From a virus: a stretch of DNA of 49,131 nucleotides. The stretch spans positions 1-49,131 of the IMG/VR virus record IMGVR_UViG_3300007351_000017. The stretch is one strand, 5' to 3'. The notes under the pieces were generated by a model. It was not told where the DNA came from. It saw only the letters and a program-made list of their open reading frames with translations, and did not search any database. A program made the position numbers and the translations under genes. Every line of letters begins with the position of its first letter. Within the stretch, counting starts at the first letter, position 1. Positions 472 through 40,295 of this stretch are shown here, in pieces.

Positions 472-1331
472 TGAAACGCCTTATCCTTGCTCTTCTTCTC
501 CTGCCCCTGACTGCCTGGGGGCAGGTCTGCACGGACGAAGTGCCCTGCTCGGCCCGGATGAATCAGGGCATCTTGGGGGCGGGGGTTCCGGCGGCTAGCT
601 CTGTTGCTTTCTGCACAGGGGCGACTACATGTAACACGCCTCCCCAAAATTGTGAGTTACTTTGTGAAGACTTAGGAGGGTCAACTGCTTGCGGTAACAG
701 TCGTGATTCTGTTTGTCGGAATGGATGGACCGTTACAGAGTCAACTGGTACGATAGATTTTGACAACACCCCTGGCGGGACGCACCCATGCACGGGGACA
801 ACAGTTCCATATAGTATCCTTGTTACCGTCCCAAGTGCCGGCAGTGGGGAGGACGCTCGCGCATATGTTGCCTTTGCCTCTGCGGATCGAACAAGATTGT
901 ATATTCAAGGTTATATACGTGTGACAGCCGAAGGGCTTAGTGATACTGATACTCATTCAATGGTCAGTCTCGTAGCATCAACTGATTCTAATTCTCTAGT
1001 GTTCAATCTTCGGCAAGACGCTGGCGGAGCTTTGAAATTTCGTGTCGCAAGCGGAGCTAATTCAGATATTGGAGCAACTGCAATTAGCTTGAATAATTGG
1101 TATCCCTTCCGTATTGATTGGGCAAACAATTCAACGGCTAACTGGTGGGTGGATTACAATAATGACGGTGATTTCGCTGATGCTGGAGAAGATGAAGGCA
1201 CAGTTACTACAATAGATGTTCCTGTTGATTGGATCAAAATAGGTCAACTAAATTTCACAGAAACATTGACTTACGAATTGATATTGTTATCTGTAAGCGA
1301 GACAGCCATGCCAACGGCTTGCACAAGGTGA
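471..1331 (+). CDS. secreted protein with a putative concanavalin/LamG-like jelly-roll domain (fibre or receptor-binding accessory)
   Basis: N-terminus MKRLILALLLLPLTAWGQV looks like a Sec signal peptide. The C-terminal half (SLVFNLRQDAGGALKFRV...WYPFRIDW...WWVDYNNDG) resembles LamG/ConA-like folds. Start is TAATG-coupled to the upstream gene. Confidence 0.7.
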   Translation: MKRLILALLLLPLTAWGQVCTDEVPCSARMNQGILGAGVPAASSVAFCTGATTCNTPPQNCELLCEDLGGSTACGNSRDSVCRNGWTVTESTGTIDFDNTPGGTHPCTGTTVPYSILVTVPSAGSGEDARAYVAFASADRTRLYIQGYIRVTAEGLSDTDTHSMVSLVASTDSNSLVFNLRQDAGGALKFRVASGANSDIGATAISLNNWYPFRIDWANNSTANWWVDYNNDGDFADAGEDEGTVTTIDVPVDWIKIGQLNFTETLTYELILLSVSETAMPTACTR

Positions 1332-2637: not shown

Positions 2638-4658
2638 AGAAGCTGCTTGCAATCCTCCTGCTTCTCACCGCCCTCAACGCCGAGGCAGCGACCAACACGG
2701 CAGGGCAGGGGACGGTCAACACAGCGGGACAGGGGTCTGATATCTCGTGGAACGTGCAGCCCATGACCAAGCTCACGGCCACAGGCGGATCTGGCAGTTG
2801 GTCGAATGGGCGCTACACGGTCGCCAAGGGGGCCACGGTTTCATTCGAGACGGATGCGGCGGGGAGCAGTTGGTGCTGGGACTTCGGGACCAGGCCAGCA
2901 AGTGCTGCCCTCGGCACCTGGGACAACACGAACAAGCTGATCTGCTATTCCAAGAGCGCAACGCCCTCCCACACCTTCAGCGACTACGGCTTCTTCGAGA
3001 TCCAGGTTGCCGTTTCAACCGGGGCACTAACCCGCCGAGGCGTCCTCCTGGTAGACGTTCCCGTTGGCGGCACGGTGATCGACCCGACAGCGGACTGCGG
3101 CGCAAACAACCTGGTTGGGGATGGGACGACGGATAATGCCGGGAAGCTAGCAACCTGCGTCAACGCCATCTCTGGTTCTGTTACAGTCACTTTCCCAACT
3201 GGGACTTACAAGTTTACTGCTCAAAACACATTTTCTACAGGATCAGGACTTACCGCCGTTGCATTACAACCAACATCTGGCGCTGCTGTAGTCCTTACAT
3301 TCGATCCTTCCGAAGACGATTCAGCCGACATATTTATCCTAACCGGTGCTCCAATAGATATAAGGGATATGACATTCACCAGAACTTTTGAGGCCGGGGA
3401 ATCGACAGACAATGTTGACCAAACCAATGCTATATCTGGAAATAGTGTGGTCGCGGTTGCAATACTTAATAGTACGTTCAATAACTTTTCAAACGTAGCC
3501 GATTCATTCACTGGGGTGTTTTCTAAAAGCAATCTTAATAACTGGGGAGCTAGAGGCTTAACTGTATCTGGATGGACTGACGATGGTGATGGGACATATA
3601 GTAAAACAGGTATAGGGTTGACAGTCAGAGCATTTGAAGAAGATGATATTTATGTCACAAAAGCCACGTCATCAACTTTGTCTGATGGTTATTGGTATTA
3701 TGATGGTTCAACGACAACTCTTCACTATAAACCAACTACTGGAGTGCCTGGAGATCATACAACTGTTGCTATATATGCGGTGTCAGCCATTGCTGGGGTT
3801 GTAGGCAATAGCTTCGTAGCTAATTTATATTCGGCGCCTCATTCTCAATACAATGGGCACATGATTTATAATGCCGGAACGGGTTATAGATACGCTGTTG
3901 GTAATTACCATGACCACACAAAAGCCCTTTCTGGTTCAATTTGGGAGGGCACAGGGGCAAACTCATATTTCTACCGAAATATGATGTCTGGAGACAAGAC
4001 AAAAATTGACGACTCATTTACAAAAGTGTTTGTTAATACTAATAGTAGTGGTGCTATTGAACTGAGAGATAGCCATTTAGATGGCCTATGGAGCGGTCCA
4101 CTTGTTGGATCTGCTACGGCATCTCATATTATATCGTCAAATCTCTTTGTTAACACTCCTGTAGCATCTCCCACTGTTTACATCAATGCCGCGTCTGGAT
4201 CTAGCGCAGTTACGAACAATAACATATTCGGTGTTGGTAGTCCCGCTGGAGGGGTCTGGAAAATATACGCTTTTGACGGGGCGGGTTGTTCTGGGTGTTC
4301 GGCCTCCGACGAACCCAACCTCACCGGTTGCGCTTGCCTCTCCGCCTCCGGCAACGTTGACGACGAGACGGCATCGGACGTGGCCTCCCCTGGCGCCTGG
4401 GAGTTTACCGTCCCCACCCTGGCCGTGGATTCTATCGTCACCAAGACTGTGACTGTAACGGCCTCTGATGCTGGCTCCGGCCTTGGCTCGACCGCCCGAT
4501 GGCCCTTTGTCTTAGCGGCACAGATCCAAGCCGAATACGCCGACAACTGGTATTCCGAGATCCAGGACTATGCTGTGGAAACAACTTGGACTAACACCCC
4601 CATCAAAGCTCGGGTGTCAGACGTGGACCACAACTGGACGGTCCCAACAGCGCCATGA
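2634..4658 (+). CDS. secreted PKD-like + pectate-lyase-3-type beta-helix protein (tailspike/depolymerase-like)
   Basis: TTG start at 2634 lies 6 nt after AGGAGG (2622-2627). Signal-peptide-like LKKLLAILLLLTALNAEA, a PKD-like segment (WCWDFGT...HTFSDYGFFEIQVAV), then NLVGDGTTDNAGKLATCVNAI, as seen at the start of Pectate_lyase_3 tailspikes. The upstream part of the long track ORF (from 2517) overlaps the previous gene. Confidence 0.75.
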   Translation: MKKLLAILLLLTALNAEAATNTAGQGTVNTAGQGSDISWNVQPMTKLTATGGSGSWSNGRYTVAKGATVSFETDAAGSSWCWDFGTRPASAALGTWDNTNKLICYSKSATPSHTFSDYGFFEIQVAVSTGALTRRGVLLVDVPVGGTVIDPTADCGANNLVGDGTTDNAGKLATCVNAISGSVTVTFPTGTYKFTAQNTFSTGSGLTAVALQPTSGAAVVLTFDPSEDDSADIFILTGAPIDIRDMTFTRTFEAGESTDNVDQTNAISGNSVVAVAILNSTFNNFSNVADSFTGVFSKSNLNNWGARGLTVSGWTDDGDGTYSKTGIGLTVRAFEEDDIYVTKATSSTLSDGYWYYDGSTTTLHYKPTTGVPGDHTTVAIYAVSAIAGVVGNSFVANLYSAPHSQYNGHMIYNAGTGYRYAVGNYHDHTKALSGSIWEGTGANSYFYRNMMSGDKTKIDDSFTKVFVNTNSSGAIELRDSHLDGLWSGPLVGSATASHIISSNLFVNTPVASPTVYINAASGSSAVTNNNIFGVGSPAGGVWKIYAFDGAGCSGCSASDEPNLTGCACLSASGNVDDETASDVASPGAWEFTVPTLAVDSIVTKTVTVTASDAGSGLGSTARWPFVLAAQIQAEYADNWYSEIQDYAVETTWTNTPIKARVSDVDHNWTVPTAP

Positions 4659-19096: not shown

Positions 19097-19312
19097 CTAT
19101 CCCTCGTCGAACATCCGGATGGAGTGTTTGGAGTAGGCTCGAGATTCCTCGATGCGTTCAATGGCCTGAAGGATGTAAACACGCTTACGTGTGTTAGTGG
19201 CAAGGCGCTCGGCCTCTACGTCGGCCTCAGCCTTTGAGTAGTGCTTTTTGGTAGGTGGGCTACCAGACTCGACAAAGAGCATCCAGAAGACTTGATCTAG
19301 GTCGTTGCTCAT
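19097..19312 (-). CDS. hypothetical 71-aa protein
   Basis: ATGA overlap with the polymerase stop. It ends 1 nt before the next start. Confidence 0.55.
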   Translation of the reverse strand: MSNDLDQVFWMLFVESGSPPTKKHYSKAEADVEAERLATNTRKRVYILQAIERIEESRAYSKHSIRMFDEG

Positions 19313-21615
19313 TTGATCTCCTTCATCGAGCCAAGACGCGGACCGGTCTTGAACTCGGCTGGAATCACAAGCATTGCGGTGCCACAAAGAAACTGGCGCT
19401 CCATCTCCTTCTTCATAACTGACGTTACCCAATCGACTTTATCAGGAGGGCACTGAACAAGCATTGAGTCGTGGATTTGCATGACAATGTGGATGCGAGG
19501 ATCGGAGTAGAAACGCCAATAGCAGCGGAGCATCGCCCTGTTTAAGTTGTCTACGACAGTAGACTGGGGTACGTAAGCGATAGCTTCCCTGACAAGGTCG
19601 TCGCCCCATCGACCGAAGAAGCGCCGCTGACGACCAAACGGAGTTCGAATCGTTCGGGTTCCGTGAAGTTCGCGCTCAACTCGTTCGTGCCACTGAGGGA
19701 TTCCGGGGAAACGCTGATAGTAAAGCTCAAGTACTCGTGAGGCTTCAGCTTCACTGAGTCCTGTGATTTGGGCGAACTTCCGTGGTCCAACTTTATAGTT
19801 TCCAGAATGGACACAGCGTTTCCCAATATCATATTCACGAGTACCTTTGCCAACCTCTTGTTCAGGCTTTCCGAATACAAGACTCGCCACGAATGGGTGG
19901 ACTTTTTTTCCACTTTGAAACCTCCCTAGAAGGTTACCATCACCAGACAAACCAGCAACGGCAATCGCCTCGGCCTGGGCGGAGTCTCCCTCGACGAAGA
20001 CGGTTCCGGCGTCGGCTATGATGATGTCACGGACGGCGCCGGCGATTGAATCATCCTCATCGGCGTGAGGCCAGTTTTGTAAATTCATTCCTGTGCCGAA
20101 TACAGTCTTTGAAGACGTTAATCTCCCGGTTTCAGTGAAGTTGAACGTTGTGCGGATACGGCCATCTGAATCAAGTTGCGCGTCAAGATAGGTTGAAATG
20201 ATCTTTCGAGCACGGCGAATTGTACCGATTAAAGGAAGTAACTGCGACGTTGATTTCTTCATTAGTTTGTCGATAGCAAGCTGATCTGTGGTGATGGAGC
20301 CGGTGGCGCGGTTGCGTTGAACGGGTAGCCGGAGCTGCTTGTAAAGCAGGGTTTGCATAGCCTTTGGCGAATTGACGTTTACCTCCCATCCGGCGAGCTC
20401 ATTGAGCTGGGCTTGCGCCGAGGAGATCTTTGATAAGAGCATTGAGCGCAGATCATCCCGCGTAGCCGTGTCGATCAACAAACCGTGGTCTTGAATGTTT
20501 GACAAGACGCGAAGCAGGGGCATTTTGTAAGTTGTGAAGAAGTCCCACAAGCCGAGCTCTTTCATCTCAACGATTTGTTTCTCGGCGATCTCAAACGTAA
20601 CGGCGCAATCCTTGCAGTTGTAAAGATACATTTGTTCAGGCGGGTCAACGCCGGGACGCCAACTTCGTCCTTCGTCTTTGTAATAGGGCTCGCGGGTGTA
20701 GATTGAGGTAAGGAAGTCAAGGGACTTTTTGAATTCAGGGTACAACACATGCGACGCAACCATAGTGTCCCAATACAAGCCCTGCAAGCAATCGCTGCCG
20801 CCAAGAAAAGATAGCTCGAATAGGGCGTTTTGGATGATCTTCTTCACATTAGGGTTTTGGATAAGCTCGGCGCAGAGTCTCCATGCACCTTCCTCTTGAC
20901 TAGATGAAGACCAATATGAGCCCTTGCCTGTGTCAAAAGGAACACATATGGCGAAGTCTGCGGAGTCGGCGAAGCCGATACATGAAATGTGGCCACGCAT
21001 GAGCTCGATATCAACGGCGACTGCTTCGGAGTGGTTCATTCGAGGAAGATGAAACATCACTTCGTCGTAGGTTGGGGAATGCAGTAGCGCCCGCTTTGGT
21101 AAGTCGAGCTTCGGCGACCTTGCCTCAATGAGGCAGCGCTTGAGGTCTTGAATGAAGATCGGACGCCACTCGTACTGGCGAAGGATCATCGCTGGATGAA
21201 TTGAAGGTACAACTTTCAATCCGGCCTTGCCCTCAAGAATTGAACCTCGCCATTTCATAATACCCTTCTTGCTGGTCAAGCCTTCAAGCGCCAAGTTGCC
21301 GAGGGCAATCACAACATTTGGTCTTATCTTAGCCAATAGCGCAATTAGCTCGTCGAGGCATTGGAACGGCGACGAGATTCCAATTTCCTTGAGACGCTTA
21401 AGGTCGTTGTCTGGCGGACGATACGGAAGGATGTTGTGGACAAAGCATTCTCGGCGATCTATTCCGACTTGAAGCAATGCGCTATCAAGAAGCTGTCCCG
21501 CACCACCGACAAAGGGAACACCCGCCGCTTCCTCCTGACGACCTGGCGCCTCGCCAATTATCGCAATGCGAGCGTCAAGTGGCCCTACGCCGTTAACCCG
21601 CTTCATTGCAAGCAT
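19309..21615 (-). CDS. family A DNA polymerase with an N-terminal family-4 uracil-DNA-glycosylase-like domain and a 3'-5' exonuclease
   Basis: GEAPGRQEEAAGVPFVGGAGQLLD and SIHPA (UDG family 4 motifs). AVDIEL (Exo I). Pol A motifs KVGPRKFAQITGLS...YYQRFPGI and QIHDSMLV. The start is ambiguous between 21624, 21615 and 21606; 21615 lies 9 nt after GGAGG. Confidence 0.85.
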   Translation of the reverse strand: MLAMKRVNGVGPLDARIAIIGEAPGRQEEAAGVPFVGGAGQLLDSALLQVGIDRRECFVHNILPYRPPDNDLKRLKEIGISSPFQCLDELIALLAKIRPNVVIALGNLALEGLTSKKGIMKWRGSILEGKAGLKVVPSIHPAMILRQYEWRPIFIQDLKRCLIEARSPKLDLPKRALLHSPTYDEVMFHLPRMNHSEAVAVDIELMRGHISCIGFADSADFAICVPFDTGKGSYWSSSSQEEGAWRLCAELIQNPNVKKIIQNALFELSFLGGSDCLQGLYWDTMVASHVLYPEFKKSLDFLTSIYTREPYYKDEGRSWRPGVDPPEQMYLYNCKDCAVTFEIAEKQIVEMKELGLWDFFTTYKMPLLRVLSNIQDHGLLIDTATRDDLRSMLLSKISSAQAQLNELAGWEVNVNSPKAMQTLLYKQLRLPVQRNRATGSITTDQLAIDKLMKKSTSQLLPLIGTIRRARKIISTYLDAQLDSDGRIRTTFNFTETGRLTSSKTVFGTGMNLQNWPHADEDDSIAGAVRDIIIADAGTVFVEGDSAQAEAIAVAGLSGDGNLLGRFQSGKKVHPFVASLVFGKPEQEVGKGTREYDIGKRCVHSGNYKVGPRKFAQITGLSEAEASRVLELYYQRFPGIPQWHERVERELHGTRTIRTPFGRQRRFFGRWGDDLVREAIAYVPQSTVVDNLNRAMLRCYWRFYSDPRIHIVMQIHDSMLVQCPPDKVDWVTSVMKKEMERQFLCGTAMLVIPAEFKTGPRLGSMKEIK

Positions 21616-21784
21616 GATTAGCATCCTCCAACTCGGCGCCGTTACGCCGGAGATCCTCTTCCAAGGAAGGCAAAGGCTCGAGCCCAAGGATACGCTCAAT
21701 GCGCTCCACGCGGCAATAAAGCTTGCCTAGTGCGGCTCGAGTTTTGTCAACTCGCTTTCGCAGATTCTTCGGTCGAATTTCCAT
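21593..21784 (-). CDS. hypothetical 63-aa protein
   Basis: GGAGG lies 7 nt upstream of the ATG at 21784. It overlaps the neighbouring genes at both ends. Confidence 0.5.
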   Translation of the reverse strand: MEIRPKNLRKRVDKTRAALGKLYCRVERIERILGLEPLPSLEEDLRRNGAELEDANHACNEAG

Positions 21785-23087
21785 TTGACTGCCTCCAGGC
21801 TTCGTCGATGAAGATAGATGCTTTTTCAAAAAGTAAAGGATCTTTTTCACAACCAATCGCTTTGCGATTGAGGCTGACGGCGGCCGCTAGGCTAGCGCCG
21901 CTACCAGCGAAACAATCAAGCACGGTTTCGCCGGGGATGGTGCTGTTCTCGATGATACGTTGGAGCAGAGCGAGGGGCTTTTGAGCGGGGTGGATTTTGA
22001 GGTTGCCGCCAACAGGGGGAACGGCGAAAACGTTGGGGAGCATCTGGGTAAGCGTGCGGTTTGAGTCACCGTCCTTTTGGCAAAACAAGATTGGCTCATA
22101 TGCGGGCGCATAGCGCTGATAGGTATAGGATGTCATGGTTGTGGTACCTTTGGCCCAGATCAAAGGTATTTCGTCGATGGTGAACCAACGGCGAACAAGG
22201 CTACAGATTTCCCCATAAGACCAAATTGCAAAGAACAAATACAAGTACCCTCCCGGAGTAAGGGATCTCTGAAGCTCAGGGAGTATGCTCGTAAGTAGCT
22301 CGATGCAGTTTTCCTCCTTATCCCAAGCTGCATCGTCCCATCTTTCCTCGAGACCTACATTCCAAGGTGGGTCGATGATAGCGCAGTGGATAGAGGCATC
22401 AGGAAGCTCCTTTAGGAAGTCTTGAGCGGCGGTGCATTTGAAAGTCCAAGGGACCTCACGGCGTTCAGGGGCCAACTCGAGCTCCTCGTCAAGTTCAGTT
22501 AAAACTTCCCGCCAGGCGGTTTCCTCTTTCTTTTTGAGCTTCGCCAAAACTGTGCGCTTTTTGTTACCGGAAAGTGTTGGGTCAACCTCAAGGCCCTTTG
22601 AAACTTTGATTGCGTCGGAGACAAAGCCGATGCTTTTGCCAAGGATCTCGGCGACATCCTCGACGCCAAAGCCATCACCACTCTTGTCGCCCTGAAGACG
22701 CCGCCCAAATTTGGCTTGACCAAGCTCATAGATCTTGCGAACGGCGTCGCATTCCTCTTGATAGGACAAGTTACGACGCTTGATGTTCTCCTCAAGTTCA
22801 ATCCATTGCTGATCTATTGGGTCAAGAACCTTGATATCGTTTACGGGAACAGAAGGCCAGCCAAGACTACGGCAAGCCTGAAGGCGACAATATCCGGCTA
22901 TAAGTTGGTCGCCGGAGACAACGATAGGGTGGAGCAAACCGCGCTGTTTGATGCTAATCGCAAGCTCTTTGATATGGTCAGGATCTACCTTTCGGCGTTG
23001 TCGCTCAGGGATGACGACGCCGTCAGTTGGAAGATATGTTATTTCAACCCGTGAAATATCGGGTTCAAAACGCTGCATATCTTTCAC
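21747..23087 (-). CDS. ParB-like nuclease domain fused to an N6-adenine/N4-cytosine DNA methyltransferase
   Basis: N-terminal HIKELAISIKQRGLLHPIVV...LIAGYCRLQACRSLGW (ParB/Srx fold). IIDPPWNV (motif IV) comes before VLDCFAGSGAS (motif I), the beta-class order. GTG at 23087 lies 6 nt after AAGGAG; ATG at 23078 is an alternative. Confidence 0.85.
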   Translation of the reverse strand: MKDMQRFEPDISRVEITYLPTDGVVIPERQRRKVDPDHIKELAISIKQRGLLHPIVVSGDQLIAGYCRLQACRSLGWPSVPVNDIKVLDPIDQQWIELEENIKRRNLSYQEECDAVRKIYELGQAKFGRRLQGDKSGDGFGVEDVAEILGKSIGFVSDAIKVSKGLEVDPTLSGNKKRTVLAKLKKKEETAWREVLTELDEELELAPERREVPWTFKCTAAQDFLKELPDASIHCAIIDPPWNVGLEERWDDAAWDKEENCIELLTSILPELQRSLTPGGYLYLFFAIWSYGEICSLVRRWFTIDEIPLIWAKGTTTMTSYTYQRYAPAYEPILFCQKDGDSNRTLTQMLPNVFAVPPVGGNLKIHPAQKPLALLQRIIENSTIPGETVLDCFAGSGASLAAAVSLNRKAIGCEKDPLLFEKASIFIDEAWRQSNGNSTEESAKAS

Positions 23088-23231
23088 ATTTTGCTCCTTT
23101 CCTTTTGCGGGTGTGGGGTTCCCGCGTTGCTGCAAATCGCCACAAGGTTGTTGTCACGCGCCATTGCTCCTTCCCACCTCAGCCCCACTCTGGGGTGCCG
23201 CCCTCGCTACGCTGTGGGCGGTGCGGCTAGA

Positions 23232-23525
23232 TTAGCCATTGGCCTCGTATGCGGCCATGACTTCTTGAAGGACACGCTCATTGGCCCGTTGCTCGATCAG
23301 TAATGCGCCAACGAGACCTGGGTATTGATTCTTACCTTCCCATGCACGGGGGCCACTGCCGTGGAATTCACCGTATTCGAGGAGCGCATCGAACAGTTTG
23401 CCAGTGACCTCAATAGCCTTCTTGATACGAGCGATTTGTGCCTCGTAGTCGGGCTTGCAGCGTTCGGGCATGTGCATTTGACTGCCCATACCTATTCCAG
23501 CTTCTCCACTGCTAAATACTCCCAT
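23232..23525 (-). CDS. hypothetical protein
   Basis: AAGGAGG RBS; clean 97-aa ORF. Confidence 0.6.
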   Translation of the reverse strand: MGVFSSGEAGIGMGSQMHMPERCKPDYEAQIARIKKAIEVTGKLFDALLEYGEFHGSGPRAWEGKNQYPGLVGALLIEQRANERVLQEVMAAYEANG

Positions 23526-23772
23526 GTTTTCCTCCTTTCGTCTCCCACCTGCACCCGGTGGGGGCGGAATTTTGAGCGTTGTTCACCGAGACGCACCCCT
23601 CGGGGTTACACATAGTTAGGGTACGCAGTACCCGGTAGCATTAGGCATCACCTCCTTTTGGTTGCTGGGGGCCGGGCTTGAGTACCGGCTGTAGGTCGTT
23701 GCGCTCACGCCTACGGGGATACAGCGCCGGTCCCCTGCGTGTCCTTCCACGCCGCCCCAGCATGGTCAATCA
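23526..23772 (-). ncRNA. candidate structured RNA / leader element B (multi-hairpin junction closed by an 8-bp stem)
   Basis: 247 nt with no credible ORF. On the transcribed (minus) strand TGCTGGGG (23762-23755) pairs with CCCCAGCA (23670-23663). This encloses four abutting hairpins (23737-52, 23715-35, 23691-714, 23671-89). Three more hairpins lie downstream. Confidence 0.4.
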
Positions 23773-24177
23773 TTACGGCCCACCATGGACCGGGCATCGC
23801 CAGCCCTCCTGCACATCACAGCCACAAGCGGGCCCGGATTTGTTGGGACCTTCCACCGCCTTCAACGCAGCAAGGCAGATGGTCTCTGGAATTTTATCCT
23901 CGTACGGATCACCATACGAGTAATACCAATCGCATTTGGTGAATGACACCAAACCGCCATTTATGGAACAGGAATACCCACGTTCCATCATCTTGTTCCT
24001 CACCATCCACGCCTGGGCTATGTCGGTGGAGGGGTGCCAGTCGAAGAAAGGCATGACTGGTTTATCCAGAGTTATCCACCATGACAGTTTCGGCCCCATA
24101 GGGTGCAAGTGCGGCTTCCACCCCATCACCGCCACCGCCACCCGTCGGTCTATCTCACGCAGTTCGTCGTCGGTCAT
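23773..24177 (-). CDS. phage ABA-sandwich-domain-like protein
   Basis: GAAGGAG lies 5 nt upstream of the ATG at 24177. MTDDELREIDRRVAVAVMGW...WHPSTDIAQAWMV matches the typical N-terminal signature of this small phage family. Confidence 0.7.
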   Translation of the reverse strand: MTDDELREIDRRVAVAVMGWKPHLHPMGPKLSWWITLDKPVMPFFDWHPSTDIAQAWMVRNKMMERGYSCSINGGLVSFTKCDWYYSYGDPYEDKIPETICLAALKAVEGPNKSGPACGCDVQEGWRCPVHGGP

Positions 24178-24197
24178 GGCTGCTCCTTCATAAAGCT

Positions 24198-24413
24198 TCA
24201 CCCCCTCAATTTCCAAATTATGACATGCTCTATCCCACCATTTTCTGAGATACGCTGGTCCAAATGCCTCTCCGCGCTGAACTCCACCGTGTCCGGTGGA
24301 ATGGCGAAAGAAGGGAACGTGAGGAAGTCCTTTGGGGTAGCATTTGATAAGGTCAATGTCTTGTTCCAATTCCTGGTCTCGATGTAGTTCCGAACTGCGC
24401 CAAGGAGGGTCAT
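24198..24413 (-). CDS. hypothetical 71-aa protein
   Basis: ATGA overlap with the upstream stop, and it ends just before the RBS of the next gene. It competes with the in-frame N-terminal extension of 23773..24468. Confidence 0.45.
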   Translation of the reverse strand: MTLLGAVRNYIETRNWNKTLTLSNATPKDFLTFPSFAIPPDTVEFSAERHLDQRISENGGIEHVIIWKLRG

Positions 24414-24691
24414 GGCGTCTCCTTTTGTTTCTCATCAACGGGCTCATAGGTCGCTTTGAATGTGTCATCTCGGCATGGATAAACCTCGCCCTTCACCCCT
24501 TTGATTATCCAATCTCCTAGATGTGCTTTCATGTCTCCTTCCAGGGTTGGAATGATGATGGGGACGCCTGGTTGAGTGAAGTTGGCTTGGATGCCATCTC
24601 CAACCCAGTCTTCAATAGTTACGTGGGCATCCACGAGTCCATCCCATTGGATAGCTTCAATCACAACGGGTTTCTTTCGGAACTTTGGCAT
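24410..24691 (-). CDS. small conserved phage protein (PGDYG-like C-terminal motif)
   Basis: AAGGAG lies 7 nt upstream of the ATG at 24691. MPKFRKKPVVIEAIQW...HLGDWIIKGVKGEVYPCRDDTFKATYEPV. The upstream part of the track ORF is the structured leader. Confidence 0.7.
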   Translation of the reverse strand: MPKFRKKPVVIEAIQWDGLVDAHVTIEDWVGDGIQANFTQPGVPIIIPTLEGDMKAHLGDWIIKGVKGEVYPCRDDTFKATYEPVDEKQKETP

Positions 24692-24867
24692 CTCTATTCT
24701 CCTTTTGGTCAAGTGTCGCAGGGTGCCGGATTCCAACCGGCTTAGAGCGGGGAGGGTTCGAACCCCCATAACGCCGCCCCGGTTTTCCGGGCTGCTGCCG
24801 TTTCCTCGGCTTCCTAGCAGTCTAGGCACGTCTGCCCGCGTGTTCGCACCACGCCGCCCCTGCGGTG
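24692..24867 (-). ncRNA. candidate structured RNA / leader element A with a tRNA-like T-arm minihelix
   Basis: 176-nt ORF-free gap. Minus-strand closing stem CGCAGGG (24864-24858) / CCCTGCG (24723-24717). Internal GGGGCGG-CGTTAT-GGGGG-TTCGAAC-CCTCC-CCGCTCT (24780-24744). A 5-bp stem with 7-nt loop sits at 24741-24725. Confidence 0.4.
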
Positions 24868-25071
24868 TTAATCCTCCCGAAACGCGGCGTTATACGCTTT
24901 CATCAGCCGCTGCAAGTCCTCTTGCGGACCCTTCACCGTAAAACGACGCTCCAGCCACCCTCCAGACTCCATCCAAGTGATGCTAAGGCCATGGAACTGA
25001 GCTTCCTTTAAAAAGTCTCTAATTGGAGTCCACAGCAGTCGGCCCGCCGTGAATCCGGCTATGGCATTCAT
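24868..25071 (-). CDS. hypothetical 67-aa protein
   Basis: GGAGG lies upstream of the ATG at 25071 (GTG at 25074 is an alternative). Confidence 0.55.
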   Translation of the reverse strand: MNAIAGFTAGRLLWTPIRDFLKEAQFHGLSITWMESGGWLERRFTVKGPQEDLQRLMKAYNAAFRED

Positions 25072-25218: not shown

Positions 25219-25611
25219 CTACATCCCCCAGAGGGAATCGATCCGGTTTGTCAAACGTTCTTTGCCCATCTTGTCAACAAAGGACTCAATGATCAAATGG
25301 GCATAGAAGGTGAGCCCAGCAAGGTCCTCGCTTGCGAAGCTTGTGCCCTCCCAGGAAAAGCCGGTGGCATTACAAAAGTCTTCCCAACGGAAGGTGCCGA
25401 TGGTGAAGCGCTCAAACACGGCTTTTCCGGCGTAGTCTGGATCGTCGATGATATGGCACTGAATTGGAATAACCCAATTGCCCTTCTCCGAAAGGTAAGG
25501 ATCCTTGAATGTCCCCACGACTTCGAGGACGTAATCCGCCTCGGGAGCGGGCTCATTTCCAGCCTTCTTCGCATGCTCGTCCCTGGTTATTCCGATGTCG
25601 ACGACTGGCAT
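25219..25611 (-). CDS. DUF669-like protein (putative ssDNA-binding partner of Sak4-type ATPases)
   Basis: 130 aa. Its position downstream of the AAA_24-like ATPase and Cas4-like nuclease matches a common phage recombination module. Sequence resemblance was judged by eye only. Confidence 0.6.
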   Translation of the reverse strand: MPVVDIGITRDEHAKKAGNEPAPEADYVLEVVGTFKDPYLSEKGNWVIPIQCHIIDDPDYAGKAVFERFTIGTFRWEDFCNATGFSWEGTSFASEDLAGLTFYAHLIIESFVDKMGKERLTNRIDSLWGM

Positions 25612-25613
25612 TG

Positions 25614-25850
25614 TTATTCCTCCGTGGCTTTGTCTGGTGTGCTGAGTTCAATCAGCAAGTTTTGGAGATAATATCCTTTGGCGTTTTCGATTTGGTCAAG
25701 GGTGTAACGGACGGCTTTAAGGTGCACTGCACAGAGATAAAACGTATCACCATCGCTGAGCGTGACCTCAACAGCAACGTTGTTGCAGCCAACCTTTTGG
25801 CAGAGAAGCTTTGGCTCTCCCTCAGCTTGAACAATAGAGCGGATTTTCAT
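25614..25850 (-). CDS. hypothetical protein
   Basis: Clean 78-aa ORF, translationally coupled to its neighbours. Confidence 0.55.
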   Translation of the reverse strand: MKIRSIVQAEGEPKLLCQKVGCNNVAVEVTLSDGDTFYLCAVHLKAVRYTLDQIENAKGYYLQNLLIELSTPDKATEE

Positions 25851-29428: not shown

Positions 29429-29474
29429 GTTTTCTCCTTTTGGCGAACGGCGGTCAACTCGGCGCCGTAGGCGC

Positions 29475-35676: not shown

Positions 35677-36807
35677 ATGGACCCAGGTGCAGATCCAGGT
35701 GTTGGTGATATTGGGCCCTTAGGCGACGTTGGTTTGGGGATTGATCCGGGTATGGGGGTTGATCCTGGGACCTTGTCCGGGATTTTGTCCAGCTTGAGCT
35801 CGTCAGAATCTGAGTCGGAGTCTGAGACGGAGTCTACTACAGCGAACCCTGCTCACGAGTTTGCAATGATGCGCCCTGAGCGGGCGTTTCAAATAAATCA
35901 GCAGTTGAAGCTGGGAAACCTTGCAGCAGTACCTAGTAACATTTTGTCCTCGATAATGAATATGCCTTCAGTGAAAAGCGCGTATAGCGCGGCAAAGCTG
36001 GGTAAATCAGTTGTGTCTGGGATTCGCGGCGCAGCTGCGGGCTCGAAATCGTCGTTAAGTCCTATTGGCGTCGCGCAAGCCTTCTCCAATTTAGCCCCTT
36101 CGTTTGTTACGGCGCTAAAGCACACAATCAACCCGCCAACGAACCCGCATGAGGTTGCGGCGGCGGAGTTGCAGGCGGCGATTGCTGCGGATCGGTTTGG
36201 CAAAGCGGGGCTTAAGATGGCTCTTGGCTTTCCAGCTAGCCAAATGATGTCGATTGTGGAGGCGATGGATCAACCTCCGTTGACGCCGCAGGAAATAATG
36301 GATGTTCATGCAACGCGGCTTACGCCAGATAGAAATCCGGGCTTTACCTCAATGGGACCAAATGCACTGGGGCTCGGCGAAATGCTCGGCATTGTGGACA
36401 ACGATACGTTTAACGCAGCGGTTCAGGCGGAAGTTGACTCATTAACAGATCGGCTCGGCGAATTTGCACAGCAATTTTCGTCGAAAGATATTTTTAATCA
36501 AGCTTTTCAAACCACGGCGGCGCAGTTTAGCCTTCGCGGAAACCCAAATGTTTCCTTCAACACAATGGCATTGCCAACGCAGAATCGTACGGGGACGCTT
36601 GAAGGGGTAACTGATAATAAGGGCGCACCGCTCGGCGCTGGCGCCCAGGGCCCAGGGTCGCCGACGGACTTCATCAAGGCGTTTATTAAGAGCCGTAAGA
36701 CTGACGATGAAAGCGATTATGATGAATTGCTTGCGCAGCTTGGTCAGGCTGAACATCTTCGGCGCCCCGCGCCGCCATGGCTAAAGAATCCGTGGAGACT
36801 TAGATGA
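35677..36807 (+). CDS. hypothetical protein with a D/G/P-rich and Ser/Glu/Thr-rich N-terminus
   Basis: MDPGADPGVGDIGPLGDVGLGIDPGMGVDPG then LSSLSSSESESESETESTT; 376 aa. Confidence 0.6.
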   Translation: MDPGADPGVGDIGPLGDVGLGIDPGMGVDPGTLSGILSSLSSSESESESETESTTANPAHEFAMMRPERAFQINQQLKLGNLAAVPSNILSSIMNMPSVKSAYSAAKLGKSVVSGIRGAAAGSKSSLSPIGVAQAFSNLAPSFVTALKHTINPPTNPHEVAAAELQAAIAADRFGKAGLKMALGFPASQMMSIVEAMDQPPLTPQEIMDVHATRLTPDRNPGFTSMGPNALGLGEMLGIVDNDTFNAAVQAEVDSLTDRLGEFAQQFSSKDIFNQAFQTTAAQFSLRGNPNVSFNTMALPTQNRTGTLEGVTDNKGAPLGAGAQGPGSPTDFIKAFIKSRKTDDESDYDELLAQLGQAEHLRRPAPPWLKNPWRLR

Positions 36808-37817
36808 TTAATCAAATTAACGTCATAACGACTTCAATCGCCGGAACCGGCGGAGGCCGTCTTATAGCCTTGATCCTTAACACGCTTGCGTCAAGGGGAA
36901 TCTGGCCAAGGGTTTACCTTCAACTCCTACCAGATAAAGGAATGGCGTCACTCTTGCGTGTCGGGTATCAAAGCATTGATGACTTCGTCGATGATGGGGA
37001 GCCGGTGATTTGCTTCGACACAGGTGTCGGCGGTCGTGTAGGGGAGATCTTCTTAAACTGTCGGGGGCAAAAGATCTTTTACCTTGTTCTCTTGCATGAG
37101 GAATATGAGAAAGTCTTGACTTGTCCTGACGTGGTGAAGGTTGGGTACTCGAGCTTTCTTTGCCGTGCGGCGAACGGCGTTGGGTATTTCCCAGGGCCTA
37201 CGGACGTTTATAACTTCTTTCCCGATTCGGATCTTCCTCGGTCAAACTACGTTTTGTATTACATGAAAAAGGCGGGTTGGGTTGGAGTGAGCGCCGTAGA
37301 GATGATCTGCCAGGCAAAGCCTGGGATGATCCCTGCGACGCTTGGGATGGATGGGATGAATGAGCGGGTACTCGCTGAGGGTCATATCATTCGTCCAAAG
37401 ATGCCGATTATGGATGTCGGTGCTCCAGCACACAAGAAAGAGGCGCTTCGCCTTGCGTATCAGCGTGCACAGATGTACGTGGCCGCCGACTCAAACGGCG
37501 GTTGGGGGAATAGCCTTTGCCTTAGTGAAGCCATGCTTTGCAAATGTCCTGTGGTATCAACGGATACGCCGTGTTTTGCTGAATTTGTCATTCCGGAGGT
37601 AACGGCTCGAGCTGTACCACGGGATGCGGCGCCCGAGCTGCCACATGGCACATGGATGACTCGACCAGCGCCGGAGCATCTTAAGGCACGGGCGCTTGAG
37701 GTTTGGGATAACCCCGAGGAAACAAAGAAAATGGTTGAAGCGGCGTACACGCATGTTCGGCGGTTTGACGTTTGGGCGTGGTCCAAATGGTTTGGAGGTA
37801 TCCTTGGATCGCTTTGA
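36804..37817 (+). CDS. GT-B fold glycosyltransferase (family 1/4-like)
   Basis: C-terminal signature WGNSLCLSEAMLCKCPVVSTDTPCFAEFV resembles the GT1 E-x7-E / EAMA-G-PVV region. Confidence 0.55.
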   Translation: MINQINVITTSIAGTGGGRLIALILNTLASRGIWPRVYLQLLPDKGMASLLRVGYQSIDDFVDDGEPVICFDTGVGGRVGEIFLNCRGQKIFYLVLLHEEYEKVLTCPDVVKVGYSSFLCRAANGVGYFPGPTDVYNFFPDSDLPRSNYVLYYMKKAGWVGVSAVEMICQAKPGMIPATLGMDGMNERVLAEGHIIRPKMPIMDVGAPAHKKEALRLAYQRAQMYVAADSNGGWGNSLCLSEAMLCKCPVVSTDTPCFAEFVIPEVTARAVPRDAAPELPHGTWMTRPAPEHLKARALEVWDNPEETKKMVEAAYTHVRRFDVWAWSKWFGGILGSL

Positions 37818-39777
37818 TCCGGTGCTCGGCGCACTTGTGCAGGATCTCCGTGGGAATTGGGAGGGCACAAGTACCCTCAGCCCTAACGTAACCGGCACGG
37901 GTGCCCTGACGCCTGAGGCCGCGGAGCGGAACGCCGCCGTAGGCAAGATGTTGATGGAACTTGCCTTTGGCGCTTCGGCTGGCCCAGGCACGGTGGCCTC
38001 CGCGCAAGAGGCAGCTAAAGGCCAAGAGCAAATTCCCCAGCTTTTGTGGGGCGAAGCCGCAGGGGCGCCGAGGGAACTTGAAGGCTGGGAGAGGGGGCTC
38101 GCAGCCCTTGGGGGAATTCCCTTCTTGGGGATGCTTGCAAAGGGCGCCGGTCAAAGTGAGCGCTTTTTCTCCAAACTTGGGGGCTGGGCCAAAAAGCCGG
38201 GACGGTTCCCAAAGGAAGCGCCCGCTGAAGAGTTTAGTAATATCTTGATGAGTGGAGTCAAAAAGGGAGAGTTCAAACCGGAGGAGCTTGAATGGAACGC
38301 CGTTTCGGGGTTGCTGAAAGATCGCGTAGGGGAGAAGCTCACACGTGAAGATGTGATTGATGCGATTGACTTGGGTGGGGTTAAGGTGGAGGAGAAAGTG
38401 TATTCTTCGCGAGGGTACGAGGATAAGCAAAGGCTCTTAGAGGAGCAAGCTAACCTTCGAAATGAATTACGAGGACTGGAGTACCCACTCTTTAATGTTG
38501 GCCTGGGGCGCGCCGTCGTAGAACGCTTAACAGGAAGACCCTTACGCCCTGATGAAAGCCATATTGTGCGCCTTCGCGAATATGTGCATGAGCAGCGAGC
38601 ACAAGGGAATTCGTTTACCTTGGCCGATTATGGTCGGTACCGAGATCAGTATAGACGTGACCTCGAGGCTCGCGGCGAGAGCTATATTGATAATACTCGA
38701 GCGGAGGAAATTCGTACACGCCTAAGTGAAACTTATCAAGAGTTGGGTGAATTAGAACAGAACAAGACGCGTTGGTCCCAATATTCTCTTCCCGGCGATG
38801 AGCCTGGCTCGTATAGGGAATTGATTATGACGCTGGATCGCCCACCAGGCAAGAATAGGGAAGCAATGTTTGCTGAAGCTGATCGTATAAATGCAGAGAT
38901 TTCTGCTGTTGGGGGAGGTCGGACTTGGGACGATCTTACTGAGGCAGAGCGGCGTGAGGCTGATAGGTTGGTTGATGAAGCAGCACAAATACATGAAATT
39001 ATCCGCTATGAGGGGCAGGAGTCCTTCACACACGAAGGTCATTGGCCAAACGTGGAGAATCCCCTTCTTCATGTTCGATTCGGCGAACGCTATATTGATG
39101 GAAAACGCACGCTTTTCGTGCATGAAATGCAGAGTGATTGGCATCAGCAGGGTGCAAAAGCAGGTTACCAAGAGGCGAAGCCCTACGTACGCGGTATGGG
39201 GGAATGGCAAGAGGATATTCAACCTGTACCAAACGCTCCATTTAAGAAATCCTGGCCTGAGCTCGGCATGAAACGGATGCTGATCTGGGCGAAGGAAAAC
39301 GGGTATGAGCGGATTGCGTGGCCGGGGACGCCGGCGCAAATGGAACGAATTGAGGGCCATTCAAAAGAGGGCCTCCGGCGCTGGTACAACGAAGTTATGC
39401 CGAATACAATGAACAAGCTGATGAAGCCATATGGTGGAAAGGTGCAACGCACCAGCGGTGCGGATGCCGATAACCTCGAGACGATGAAGATTCGGCTCGC
39501 CCATTACTTCATGGAGCAGCACGGCGATTCCATTGAGGATGCTGCCCGGGGCATAAATGAGATGTCCCCTGGGGAGATCGAATTTCATTACACTCGAGCG
39601 GGGCTTGCGGCGCCGGAGAAAGGCCAGGTCAATTACATTGATTTGCCCGAGGCAACGCCGCGGTCTTGGCCGTTGTTTATTGGGGCGCCGATGATCGGCA
39701 TAGCGCAGCCACGAACTGCGGAGCAAGGCGAGTATGATCCTGCCCTTGGCGGTGTGCTTATTGGAGCATCTCAATAA
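37804..39777 (+). CDS. large hypothetical protein (657 aa), possible virion-associated/polyvalent-type protein
   Basis: TTG at 37804 lies 5 nt after GGAGG; the track start 37696 lies inside the GT gene. Conserved-looking block HEGHWPNVENPLLHVRF...LFVHEMQSDWHQQG; function unknown. Confidence 0.6.
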   Translation: MDRFDPVLGALVQDLRGNWEGTSTLSPNVTGTGALTPEAAERNAAVGKMLMELAFGASAGPGTVASAQEAAKGQEQIPQLLWGEAAGAPRELEGWERGLAALGGIPFLGMLAKGAGQSERFFSKLGGWAKKPGRFPKEAPAEEFSNILMSGVKKGEFKPEELEWNAVSGLLKDRVGEKLTREDVIDAIDLGGVKVEEKVYSSRGYEDKQRLLEEQANLRNELRGLEYPLFNVGLGRAVVERLTGRPLRPDESHIVRLREYVHEQRAQGNSFTLADYGRYRDQYRRDLEARGESYIDNTRAEEIRTRLSETYQELGELEQNKTRWSQYSLPGDEPGSYRELIMTLDRPPGKNREAMFAEADRINAEISAVGGGRTWDDLTEAERREADRLVDEAAQIHEIIRYEGQESFTHEGHWPNVENPLLHVRFGERYIDGKRTLFVHEMQSDWHQQGAKAGYQEAKPYVRGMGEWQEDIQPVPNAPFKKSWPELGMKRMLIWAKENGYERIAWPGTPAQMERIEGHSKEGLRRWYNEVMPNTMNKLMKPYGGKVQRTSGADADNLETMKIRLAHYFMEQHGDSIEDAARGINEMSPGEIEFHYTRAGLAAPEKGQVNYIDLPEATPRSWPLFIGAPMIGIAQPRTAEQGEYDPALGGVLIGASQ

Positions 39778-40295
39778 TGGGCTACTTTTACAAAGGTCCG
39801 CATACCTACGGCGATATCAAAGTGCTGGATTGTGGCGGTCCGTACAACGTCTATGCAGGAAAGTTCTGCTCAATCGCCGAAGGCGTTGAGGCATATTTGG
39901 ACTGCGATCATCGACCAGATTTCATTTCAACGTATCCCTTTTCCCAATGGGGTTTGCCCACGCCAGGGCATCCTTTTGGGAAAGGGGATATCACGATTGG
40001 GAATGATGTTTGGGTTGGGCGTAAGGCAACTTTGATGTCCGGCATTACGATTGGCAATGGCGCTGTTATTGGGGCGCATTCTGTTGTAACAAAGTTCGTT
40101 CCCGGGTACACCGTTGTAGCAGGGAGTCCAGCGAAAATTCGAAAGTATCGCTTTGACAACAATACAATCCTGTGGCTGCAAGAGCTTTGCTGGTGGGATT
40201 GGCCAGAGGAAATTATCGCTAGGGCTGCACCAATATTGATGTCCTCGGACATTGAGGCATTGCGGAGGTTTGTGCGTGACAATTTCATCGGGTGA
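39777..40295 (+). CDS. xenobiotic acetyltransferase (XAT) class hexapeptide-repeat acyltransferase (Vat/CatB-like)
   Basis: GKFCSIAEGV...CDHRPDFISTYPF...KGDITIGNDVWVGRKATLMSGITIGNGAVIGAHSVVTKFVPGYTVVAGSPAKIRKYRFDNNTILWLQELCWWDWP aligns by eye with Vat(D)/CatB along most of its length, including the catalytic-His context. Confidence 0.8.
   Translation: MGYFYKGPHTYGDIKVLDCGGPYNVYAGKFCSIAEGVEAYLDCDHRPDFISTYPFSQWGLPTPGHPFGKGDITIGNDVWVGRKATLMSGITIGNGAVIGAHSVVTKFVPGYTVVAGSPAKIRKYRFDNNTILWLQELCWWDWPEEIIARAAPILMSSDIEALRRFVRDNFIG

Follow-up and report, generated by a model that had tools for sequence, protein, structure and literature searches.

The window analysed here, a 49,131-nucleotide (nt) stretch of viral DNA (IMG/VR record IMGVR_UViG_3300007351_000017, positions 1 to 49,131), carries on its minus strand two intergenic elements, A and B, that very probably belong to a real family of transfer RNA (tRNA)-like RNAs of phages and prophages. 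Members of the family share a common layout, in which a closing stem and a CG linker lead into a 5-base-pair (bp) D-arm-like hairpin, followed by a variable insert and a 5-bp T-arm-like hairpin that lies flush against the 3' arm of the closing stem. A preliminary description, made from the letters of the window, had taken the two gaps for paralogous copies of one conserved structured RNA of no catalogued class; both parts of this proposal stand, as independent covariance models match A and B and Rfam 15 yields no match.

Model R1 was built from 12 sequences, model R2 from 30 short members of genomic and viral origin (type-1 only) and model R3 from six viral members having 7-nt T loops, with no sequence of the window included in either R2 or R3. 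R3 recognizes A with 55.5 bits (E = 1.9e-8) and B with 47.9 bits (E = 4.3e-7); R2 scores B at 67.8 bits (E = 2.1e-15) and misses A (10.5 bits), which represents another loop subtype. Within the window, the models that lack window sequences match only the A and B sites, whose parts are as follows.

24717..24864, minus strand: element A, the whole tRNA-shaped RNA with both arms of the closing stem included (R3 match over the full length; the RNAfold minimum-energy structure closes with the same stem)
24858..24864, minus strand: A, closing (acceptor-like) stem, 5' arm CGCAGGG
24838..24854, minus strand: A, D-arm-like hairpin GCGTG-GTGCGAA-CACGC, whose stem covaries family-wide
24742..24837, minus strand: A, variable insert ("cargo") of 96 nt, with four abutting hairpins predicted
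24744..24780, minus strand: A, nested tRNA-like minihelix within the insert, GGGGCGG / GGGGG-TTCGAAC-CCTCC / CCGCTCT (weak Rfam mascRNA match, E = 9)
24725..24741, minus strand: A, T-arm-like hairpin GCCGG-TTGGAAT-CCGGC (T stem covaries in alignment sets A2 and A3)
24717..24723, minus strand: A, closing stem, 3' arm CCCTGCG
23663..23762, minus strand: element B, the whole tRNA-shaped RNA, 100 nt (matched by R2 and R3)
23755..23762, minus strand: B, closing stem, 5' arm TGCTGGGG (RNAfold)
23737..23752, minus strand: B, D-arm-like hairpin GCGTG-GAAGGA-CACGC
23690..23736, minus strand: B, variable insert of 47 nt, consisting of GGGGA-11 nt loop-TCCCC and then a GTAGG..CCTAC hairpin
23671..23689, minus strand: B, T-arm-like hairpin GCCGG-TACTCAAGC-CCGGC
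23663..23670, minus strand: B, closing stem, 3' arm CCCCAGCA, then ACCA

Most of the shared features put forward in the preliminary description are borne out by this map. The common 5' motif is an exact 12-mer, GGGGCGGCGTGG, found in the window only at 23747-23758 and 24849-24860 (both minus strand), and the third copy suspected near 24771-24780 corresponds to a 10/12 match at 24769-24780 (minus strand). The first hairpin has the stem GCGTG/CACGC in both elements and the loops GTGCGAA in A and GAAGGA in B; the closing stems lie where they had been placed and are both recovered by RNAfold; and the two differences between A and B next to the motif are matched in the partner arm (C:G versus U:A, and A:U versus U:A), as expected of compensatory changes. 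Absent from that account are the tRNA-like character of the scaffold and the last hairpin, whose stem GCCGG/CCGGC is identical in A and B. At the innermost closing-stem position of the family, A has a G-A mismatch (G24857 opposite A24724). The extent given earlier for B, 23526-23772, has to be shortened, since the 137 nt from 23526 to 23662 fall outside the element and are as stable as shuffled sequence (z = +0.19). The shared 3' context CCAAAAGGAG does exist, but it is a generic ribosome-binding context of this particular phage and lies outside the element, with 13 occurrences at no more than one mismatch (about 4 expected) and an exact copy at 29434-29443. Against shuffled controls, z is -2.2 for A and -0.28 for the long interval formerly assigned to B; thermodynamic stability by itself is weak evidence for A and B.

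A further R3 match, at 567-652 (minus strand; 17.3 bits, E = 0.11), overlaps a 10/12 copy of the motif (634-645) inside a plus-strand open reading frame (ORF) and is probably due to chance.

Comparative data strengthen the case considerably. The homologue search and covariance models that the preliminary description had suggested reveal a large family with compensated substitutions rather than broken stems. In 92 distinct homologues selected by the T-arm motif, pairing is retained in 95.5% of cells, versus 27-39% once the partner columns are displaced by 1-3 positions; both bases have changed at 8 of the 9 closing-stem pairs and all 5 first-hairpin pairs, and none of 500 shuffles attained any of the observed values. 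As the T stem is fixed by the search pattern in this set, it was judged on sets selected from the 5' side, where it also covaries (GCCGG, GCTGG, GCAGG, GTTGG, GTGGG, TCAGG and others), so that, judged from the alignments, all three helices covary; a MAFFT seed alignment leaves this picture unchanged. The closing stem usually ends in GG and has a modal length of 8 bp (7 bp, n = 33; 8 bp, n = 44; 9 bp, n = 29), and in the linker the C is invariant and the G nearly so.

Because the spacing of these parts (stem, 2 nt, hairpin, and a last hairpin flush with the stem) matches that of tRNA, the first hairpin occupies the D-arm position and the last the T-arm position. The resemblance extends to the loops: some members combine canonical T loops, TTCGAAT or TTCAAAT, with D loops such as GTGGGA, and the commonest subtype, with the D loop GAWGGA and the T loop NAUCRAGY, keeps the GG of the former and the UCRA of the latter. 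Moreover, one base of the D loop and one of the T loop change in concert: most members have G:C, element A of the window (GUGCGAA / UUGGAAU) and a further locus (L009; loci are numbered with the prefix L) have C:G, and the second copy of L011 has A:U; although the sample is small, such covariation is suggestive of the tRNA elbow pair G19:C56. When the insert was exchanged for the anticodon arm and variable loop of E. coli tRNA-Phe, ARAGORN called a tRNA in the chimeras of A, B, L038 and the consensus scaffold, in none of 40 controls with a shuffled D arm, in none of 40 with a shuffled T arm, and in 12/40 and 25/40 with shuffled loops. Like canonical tRNAs, including class II tRNAs and tRNA-Sec, the family thus has the same order and spacing of parts, a GG D loop, a UCRA T-loop core and, in some members, TTCGAAT loops, and its elements are likewise co-oriented and contiguous with tRNA genes; it differs in the insert that replaces the anticodon arm, in the CG linker, in a closing stem of 7-21 bp and in an unconserved CCA.

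The family is widespread. Viral contigs were scanned for the 5' motif together with the first hairpin, which gave 115 stretches, mostly chance-level matches to the 17-base pattern, about one third of which also have the 3' hairpin and a complementary closing stem, and an R1 search of the viral loci bearing the 5' motif retrieved 34 elements. Scanning with the 20-nt T-arm motif gave at least 120 matches in viral contigs, with 95 full elements in the 100 loci searched. A scan of bacterial genomes (one per species) gave at least 120, with 60 elements in 80 loci. The bacterial copies lie in prophage-like contexts in Alpha-, Beta- and Gammaproteobacteria, Acidobacteria, Planctomycetes, Verrucomicrobia, Chloroflexi, Elusimicrobia, Clostridia and others; complete E. 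coli genomes contain no copy. Four cultured phages, Acidovorax AP1, Caulobacter DMCA, Pseudanabaena Pan3 and Komagataeibacter phiKX1, carry an unannotated copy. Its approximate position is 4320-4450 in AP1 (OM049504), 25550-25690 in DMCA (PQ480021), 36560-36730 in Pan3 (ON968454) and 52660-52815 in phiKX1 (LC644975). Two copies per contig are frequent (L012, L025/L080, L011, L069, L073 and L054). Closer to the window itself, BLAST of a 1.8-kb region against cultured phages matched only the neighbouring gene of 93 amino acids, and a search for close relatives through two flanking proteins found none or one distant locus among viral contigs, the metagenome scan returning the same distant contig.

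In L080 (5804-6242; also in L025), tandem elements with different inserts are each followed by a repeat of about 111 nt (97% identical) that contains the G/C-rich hairpins CCCCCC-TTATCA-GGGGGG and CCTCCCC-TGATAA-GGGGAGG; element and spacer appear to have been duplicated as a single unit.

In its genomic setting the element resembles a tRNA gene. ARAGORN predicts 38 tRNA genes in 182 element-bearing loci; for 31 of them the distance to an element is at most 500 nt, and these share its strand without exception. In ten elements a tRNA starts 1-12 nt past the model match (Met in four, Gly in two, and Arg, Val, Cys and an ochre suppressor), and in L142 tRNA-Trp and tRNA-Met flank the element. The predicted suppressor (anticodon TTA) begins 4 nt past an element of Novimethylophilus kurashikiensis (L170, 1978-2186, plus strand). 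No protein-coding neighbour is conserved; the commonest cluster, a RecT family, occurs in only 8 of about 95 loci, and YqaJ nucleases and S24 repressors recur among the others. At another locus, the Rfam Burkholderiales-2 RNA (93.5 bits; L262, 1542-1615, minus strand) lies about 900 nt from the element on the opposite strand.

The insert is highly variable and moderately structured. Its length ranges from 26 to 175 nt with a median of 79 nt, and of 184 inserts 158 are without detectable relatives in the rest of the set. Beyond GNRA hairpins, of which CCGAAAGG is over-represented, no universal motif was found in the inserts. Selection on the insert is indicated by L116, L317 and L332, since their inserts are nearly identical while their closing and D stems have changed completely, always with compensation. 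The over-represented GNRA hairpin and a folding stability slightly above that of shuffled sequence point the same way. An internal T-arm-like hairpin is present in 4 of 184 members, window A among them, and also in Pan3; in A it belongs to the minihelix at 24744-24780, where an acceptor-like stem with two G-U pairs carries a canonical-looking T arm.

The inserts of L302 (3746-3887, minus strand) and L328 (3768-3909, plus strand) each amount to a nested pseudo-tRNA that is almost complete and has an anticodon loop of 6 nt; the L328 copy reaches 46.5 bits and passes the Rfam gathering score for tRNA.

How such an RNA might work is suggested by its shape. Transcribed within the operon or tRNA array in which it lies, the element would present a mimic of the acceptor/T stack and of the elbow formed by the D and T loops, and on account of this mimicry could be excised by the tRNA-maturation enzymes of the host. 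Ribonuclease P (RNase P) would cleave on the 5' side of the element or, where a tRNA adjoins it downstream, at the 5' end of that tRNA, with 3' trimming as the next step; where that tRNA lies 1-12 nt away, its cleavage would by itself create the 3' end of the element. For such cleavage the tRNA-like elbow and stack and the closely following tRNA genes provide indirect support. The product would be a small stable RNA whose scaffold confers processing and stability and whose insert confers a phage-specific activity, and excision would also split the early polycistronic messenger RNA (mRNA) at the element. We give this excision-and-scaffold mechanism, that is, a tRNA mimic released by tRNA-processing enzymes with a phage-specific RNA cargo, slightly less than an even chance of being right; the reality of the family and this mechanism, assessed as a single proposition, come out somewhat better than even. 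A further-reaching proposal, that phages of many phyla use a natural "tRNA scaffold" to hijack the tRNA processing, modification and stability of their hosts on behalf of hypervariable cargo effectors in conflict, is advanced tentatively and is more doubtful than not; on that proposal the cargos would be fast-evolving decoys, sponges or guides in phage-host or phage-phage conflict, and sometimes nested pseudo-tRNAs.

Several observations weigh against excision and scaffolding. The closing stem is mostly 8-9 bp long, reaching 14-21 bp in about 15% of members, whereas RNase P and aminoacylation normally see 7 bp and a free NCCA; a CCA past the stem occurs in 11 of 186 members, which is no enrichment, nor is U enriched at position -1. 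The commonest T loop (NAUCRAGY) has 8 nt and lacks U54, and the linker is CG instead of U8-N9, so that the core of the family departs from real tRNA. As for the cargo, the inserts are only marginally more stable than their dinucleotide shuffles (mean z = -0.45, p = 6e-6), and they reveal no target, in that their longest complementarity to 2.5 kb of same-strand flank (about 150 loci on each side) equals that of shuffled sequence, at 8.69 versus 8.59 nt downstream and 8.59 versus 8.56 nt upstream; inside the window, nothing exceeds the chance level of 11-12 nt. Finally, alignments A4 and A3 were fitted by model to the same structure, which somewhat inflates the pairing percentages.

The leading alternative is that the elements act in cis as punctuation, their tRNA-like fold recruiting RNase P or RNase E to cut the early transcript between cistrons and their stable 5' structure protecting or insulating the downstream mRNA and its ribosome-binding site, with a functionless insert. 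The setting of the window copies agrees with this: A and B fill intergenic gaps of a single minus-strand operon, starting 3-10 nt past a stop codon and ending 1-8 nt ahead of a Shine-Dalgarno sequence, and neither a promoter nor a terminator belonging to them was detected in the window; in L065, moreover, a ribosome-binding site abuts the closing stem, and the singleton inserts are as diverse as neutral sequence should be. Yet many copies reside inside tRNA arrays or beside a single tRNA, where punctuation of mRNA is unneeded, and an ordinary tRNA would suffice for the purpose. The inserts are also long for compact phage genomes and, where relatives exist, more conserved than the scaffold stems. 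On balance, punctuation is an unlikely explanation, though one of real weight.

C4 of phages P1 and P7 and CI of P4 (RF01695) are cloverleaf-like phage RNAs with variable loops that RNase P cuts from an operon transcript, and an antisense or immunity RNA of this type, whose variable loops would pair with its own transcript or that of a competitor, is the next alternative. The layout of closing stem and variable hairpin loops matches, carriage is by phages and prophages, often near S24 repressors, and a hypervariable specificity region fits heteroimmunity. The family differs, however, in its explicit mimicry of D and T arms and its far wider host range; the Rfam model of C4 is silent even at E <= 10, and the complementarity between insert and flank is that of shuffled controls, a test beyond whose reach lie pairings of 7-8 nt. 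This identity was rejected, and an antisense function in general appears rather improbable.

A translation-active relative of tRNA or transfer-messenger RNA (tmRNA), aminoacylated and acting on the ribosome in rescue, recoding or sensing, would account for the acceptor, D-arm and T-arm criteria of ARAGORN being satisfied in the chimeras and for the NCCA past the stem in B, L008, L102 and the second copy of L012. The 8+5 bp stack is also reminiscent of bacterial tRNA-Sec, which has an 8/5 acceptor/T stack. The natural elements are nevertheless not called as tRNA or tmRNA: ARAGORN finds neither in the window or in 18 element-bearing viral loci, and its only calls overlapping elements across the 182 loci are a flanking tRNA-Gly (L286) and the nested pseudo-tRNA of L302. 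No Rfam tRNA or tmRNA match covers A or B, and for RF00005 there is none at E <= 10 over 23400-25000; a decoding tRNA was rejected. A hairpin like an anticodon arm (5-bp stem, 7-nt loop) follows the D arm in 1 of 170 members; at this position B has a hairpin with an 11-nt loop and A four unrelated hairpins. No anticodon-stem halves flank the insert, and a tRNA interrupted by an intron was likewise discarded. With tmRNA the family shares a tRNA-like acceptor/T module enclosing a long structured interior, and some phages carry tmRNA too; it differs in its full D hairpin and in having no resume codon and no conserved pseudoknot series. There is, in addition, no G3:U70 (3:70 is U:A, C:G or A:U in the members inspected), on which ground a tmRNA was rejected, and no conserved tag frame, the apparent open frame in L025 and L065 being a covarying hairpin, and ARAGORN and Rfam are silent for tmRNA. 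Given also the lack of CCA enrichment and closing stems that often exceed 8 bp, a role in translation is very improbable.

That the element acts at the level of DNA, as a site for recombination or attachment, as a small mobile element or as an array bound by proteins, and that its hairpins are incidental, could be argued from the frequency of several copies per genome at non-syntenic positions, from closing stems that resemble short terminal inverted repeats and from the element of Caulobacter phage DMCA, placed between transposase and integrase genes. But structure-preserving covariation affects three helices that are not inverted copies of each other, G-U pairs would be A-C mismatches on the opposite strand, co-orientation with tRNA genes is strict (31/31) and no target-site duplications were seen, which leaves very little probability for this explanation. 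In the DMCA genome (PQ480021; L119, 2890-3031, plus strand), the annotated transposase gene is on one side of the element and the divergent integrase gene on the other; this gap is possibly a hot spot for insertion or adjacent to an attachment site.

Control of the downstream gene, by a riboswitch, a leader or an antitermination element, is suggested by the position of the window copies in 5' untranslated gaps directly ahead of ribosome-binding sites, two of them in one early operon, but is the least credible explanation, as the interior (the would-be ligand pocket) is hypervariable, the downstream gene is unconserved and often a tRNA, many copies lie within tRNA arrays, and no terminator/anti-terminator alternative was found. 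Among the functions listed in the preliminary description, the riboswitch-like leader and the antitermination element are accordingly disfavoured, and the small stable RNA and the processing site are retained as the best candidates.

Comparison with catalogued RNAs did not supply another identity. An Rfam scan of the whole window at gathering thresholds returned no match, and at E <= 10 the region 23400-25000 gave chance-level NiCo (on the wrong strand), Six3os1 and snoRNA matches in addition to the weak tRNA-like mascRNA match inside A. A sponge for CsrA, conceivable from an ANGGA in the D loop, was set aside, the motif being absent from other subtypes and the family abundant in Alphaproteobacteria. 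YrlA mimics tRNA without decoding, its D and T arms being conserved; it is present in phages, and in M. smegmatis it is acted upon by tRNA enzymes, among them RNase P (PMC4201824). Its order is permuted into a T arm, a capped "acceptor" stem-loop and a D arm, and it has a Ro60-binding stem (PMC4201824). The ends of YrlA emerge on the anticodon-stem side (PMC4201824), whereas those of the family are at the acceptor position. An assignment to YrlA was rejected on this unpermuted topology, together with the absence of Ro60/TROVE among the window proteins scanned and of any conserved neighbour.

In the mascRNA of MALAT1, the TMERs of murine gammaherpesvirus 68 and the engineered tRNA scaffold, tRNA mimicry lends processing and stability. 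In the last of these, as in the family, cargo replaces the anticodon arm; but all three are eukaryotic, viral-eukaryotic or artificial, whereas the family is found in bacteria and phages. No natural bacterial or phage equivalent of the tRNA scaffold is described in Rfam 15 or the searchable literature, and full-text searches for the motif sequences together with keyword searches found no description of the family. It may be present without a name in large, automatically compiled catalogues of candidate viral RNAs (PMC10690425).

In the window, A and B lie within a minus-strand replication module. The phage is an SU10-like podophage, and the module encodes DUF3987, a UDG-PolA fusion, a ParB-methylase, AAA_24 and a PD-(D/E)XK nuclease. 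The DNA polymerase gene (19309-21699, minus strand) fuses a uracil-DNA glycosylase superfamily domain to a 3'-5' exonuclease and a family A polymerase, and a fusion of ParB to an N6/N4 DNA methylase is located at 21747-23135, downstream of the polymerase gene. Directly past B (23606-23661, minus strand), a near-perfect Shine-Dalgarno sequence, AAAGGAGGTGA, precedes two ATGs. With the second (23639-23641) begins a mini-ORF of 11 codons, MLPGTAYPNYV, whose end is at 23606; it may encode a leader peptide or have arisen by chance. Some 80 nt separate it from the start of the next real gene, at 23525. Among the late genes of the phage are those for a group-1 glycosyltransferase and a hexapeptide-repeat acyltransferase (36804-37817 and 39777-40295, plus strand), whose products may modify the host surface or the virion.

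In summary, the family is apparently uncatalogued, being absent from Rfam 15, undescribed in the searchable literature and unannotated in the records of the four cultured phages. If the present interpretation is true, current annotation misses a large class of RNA genes that phages and prophages carry across a broad phylogenetic range. Its design is unusual, in that the sequence of the shell is conserved across phyla and the interior differs in almost every copy; this combination suggests that the shell has a universal partner in the host, the tRNA-processing machinery being the likeliest, and that the functions of the cargo diversify rapidly. The phages of Caulobacter, Acidovorax, Komagataeibacter and Pseudanabaena would then offer testable systems in culturable hosts, and the family may provide a natural blueprint for stable RNA expression in bacteria. 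Should the natural-scaffold proposal be true, phages would possess a major new class of non-coding RNA, a bacterial counterpart of the herpesvirus tRNA-microRNA RNAs.

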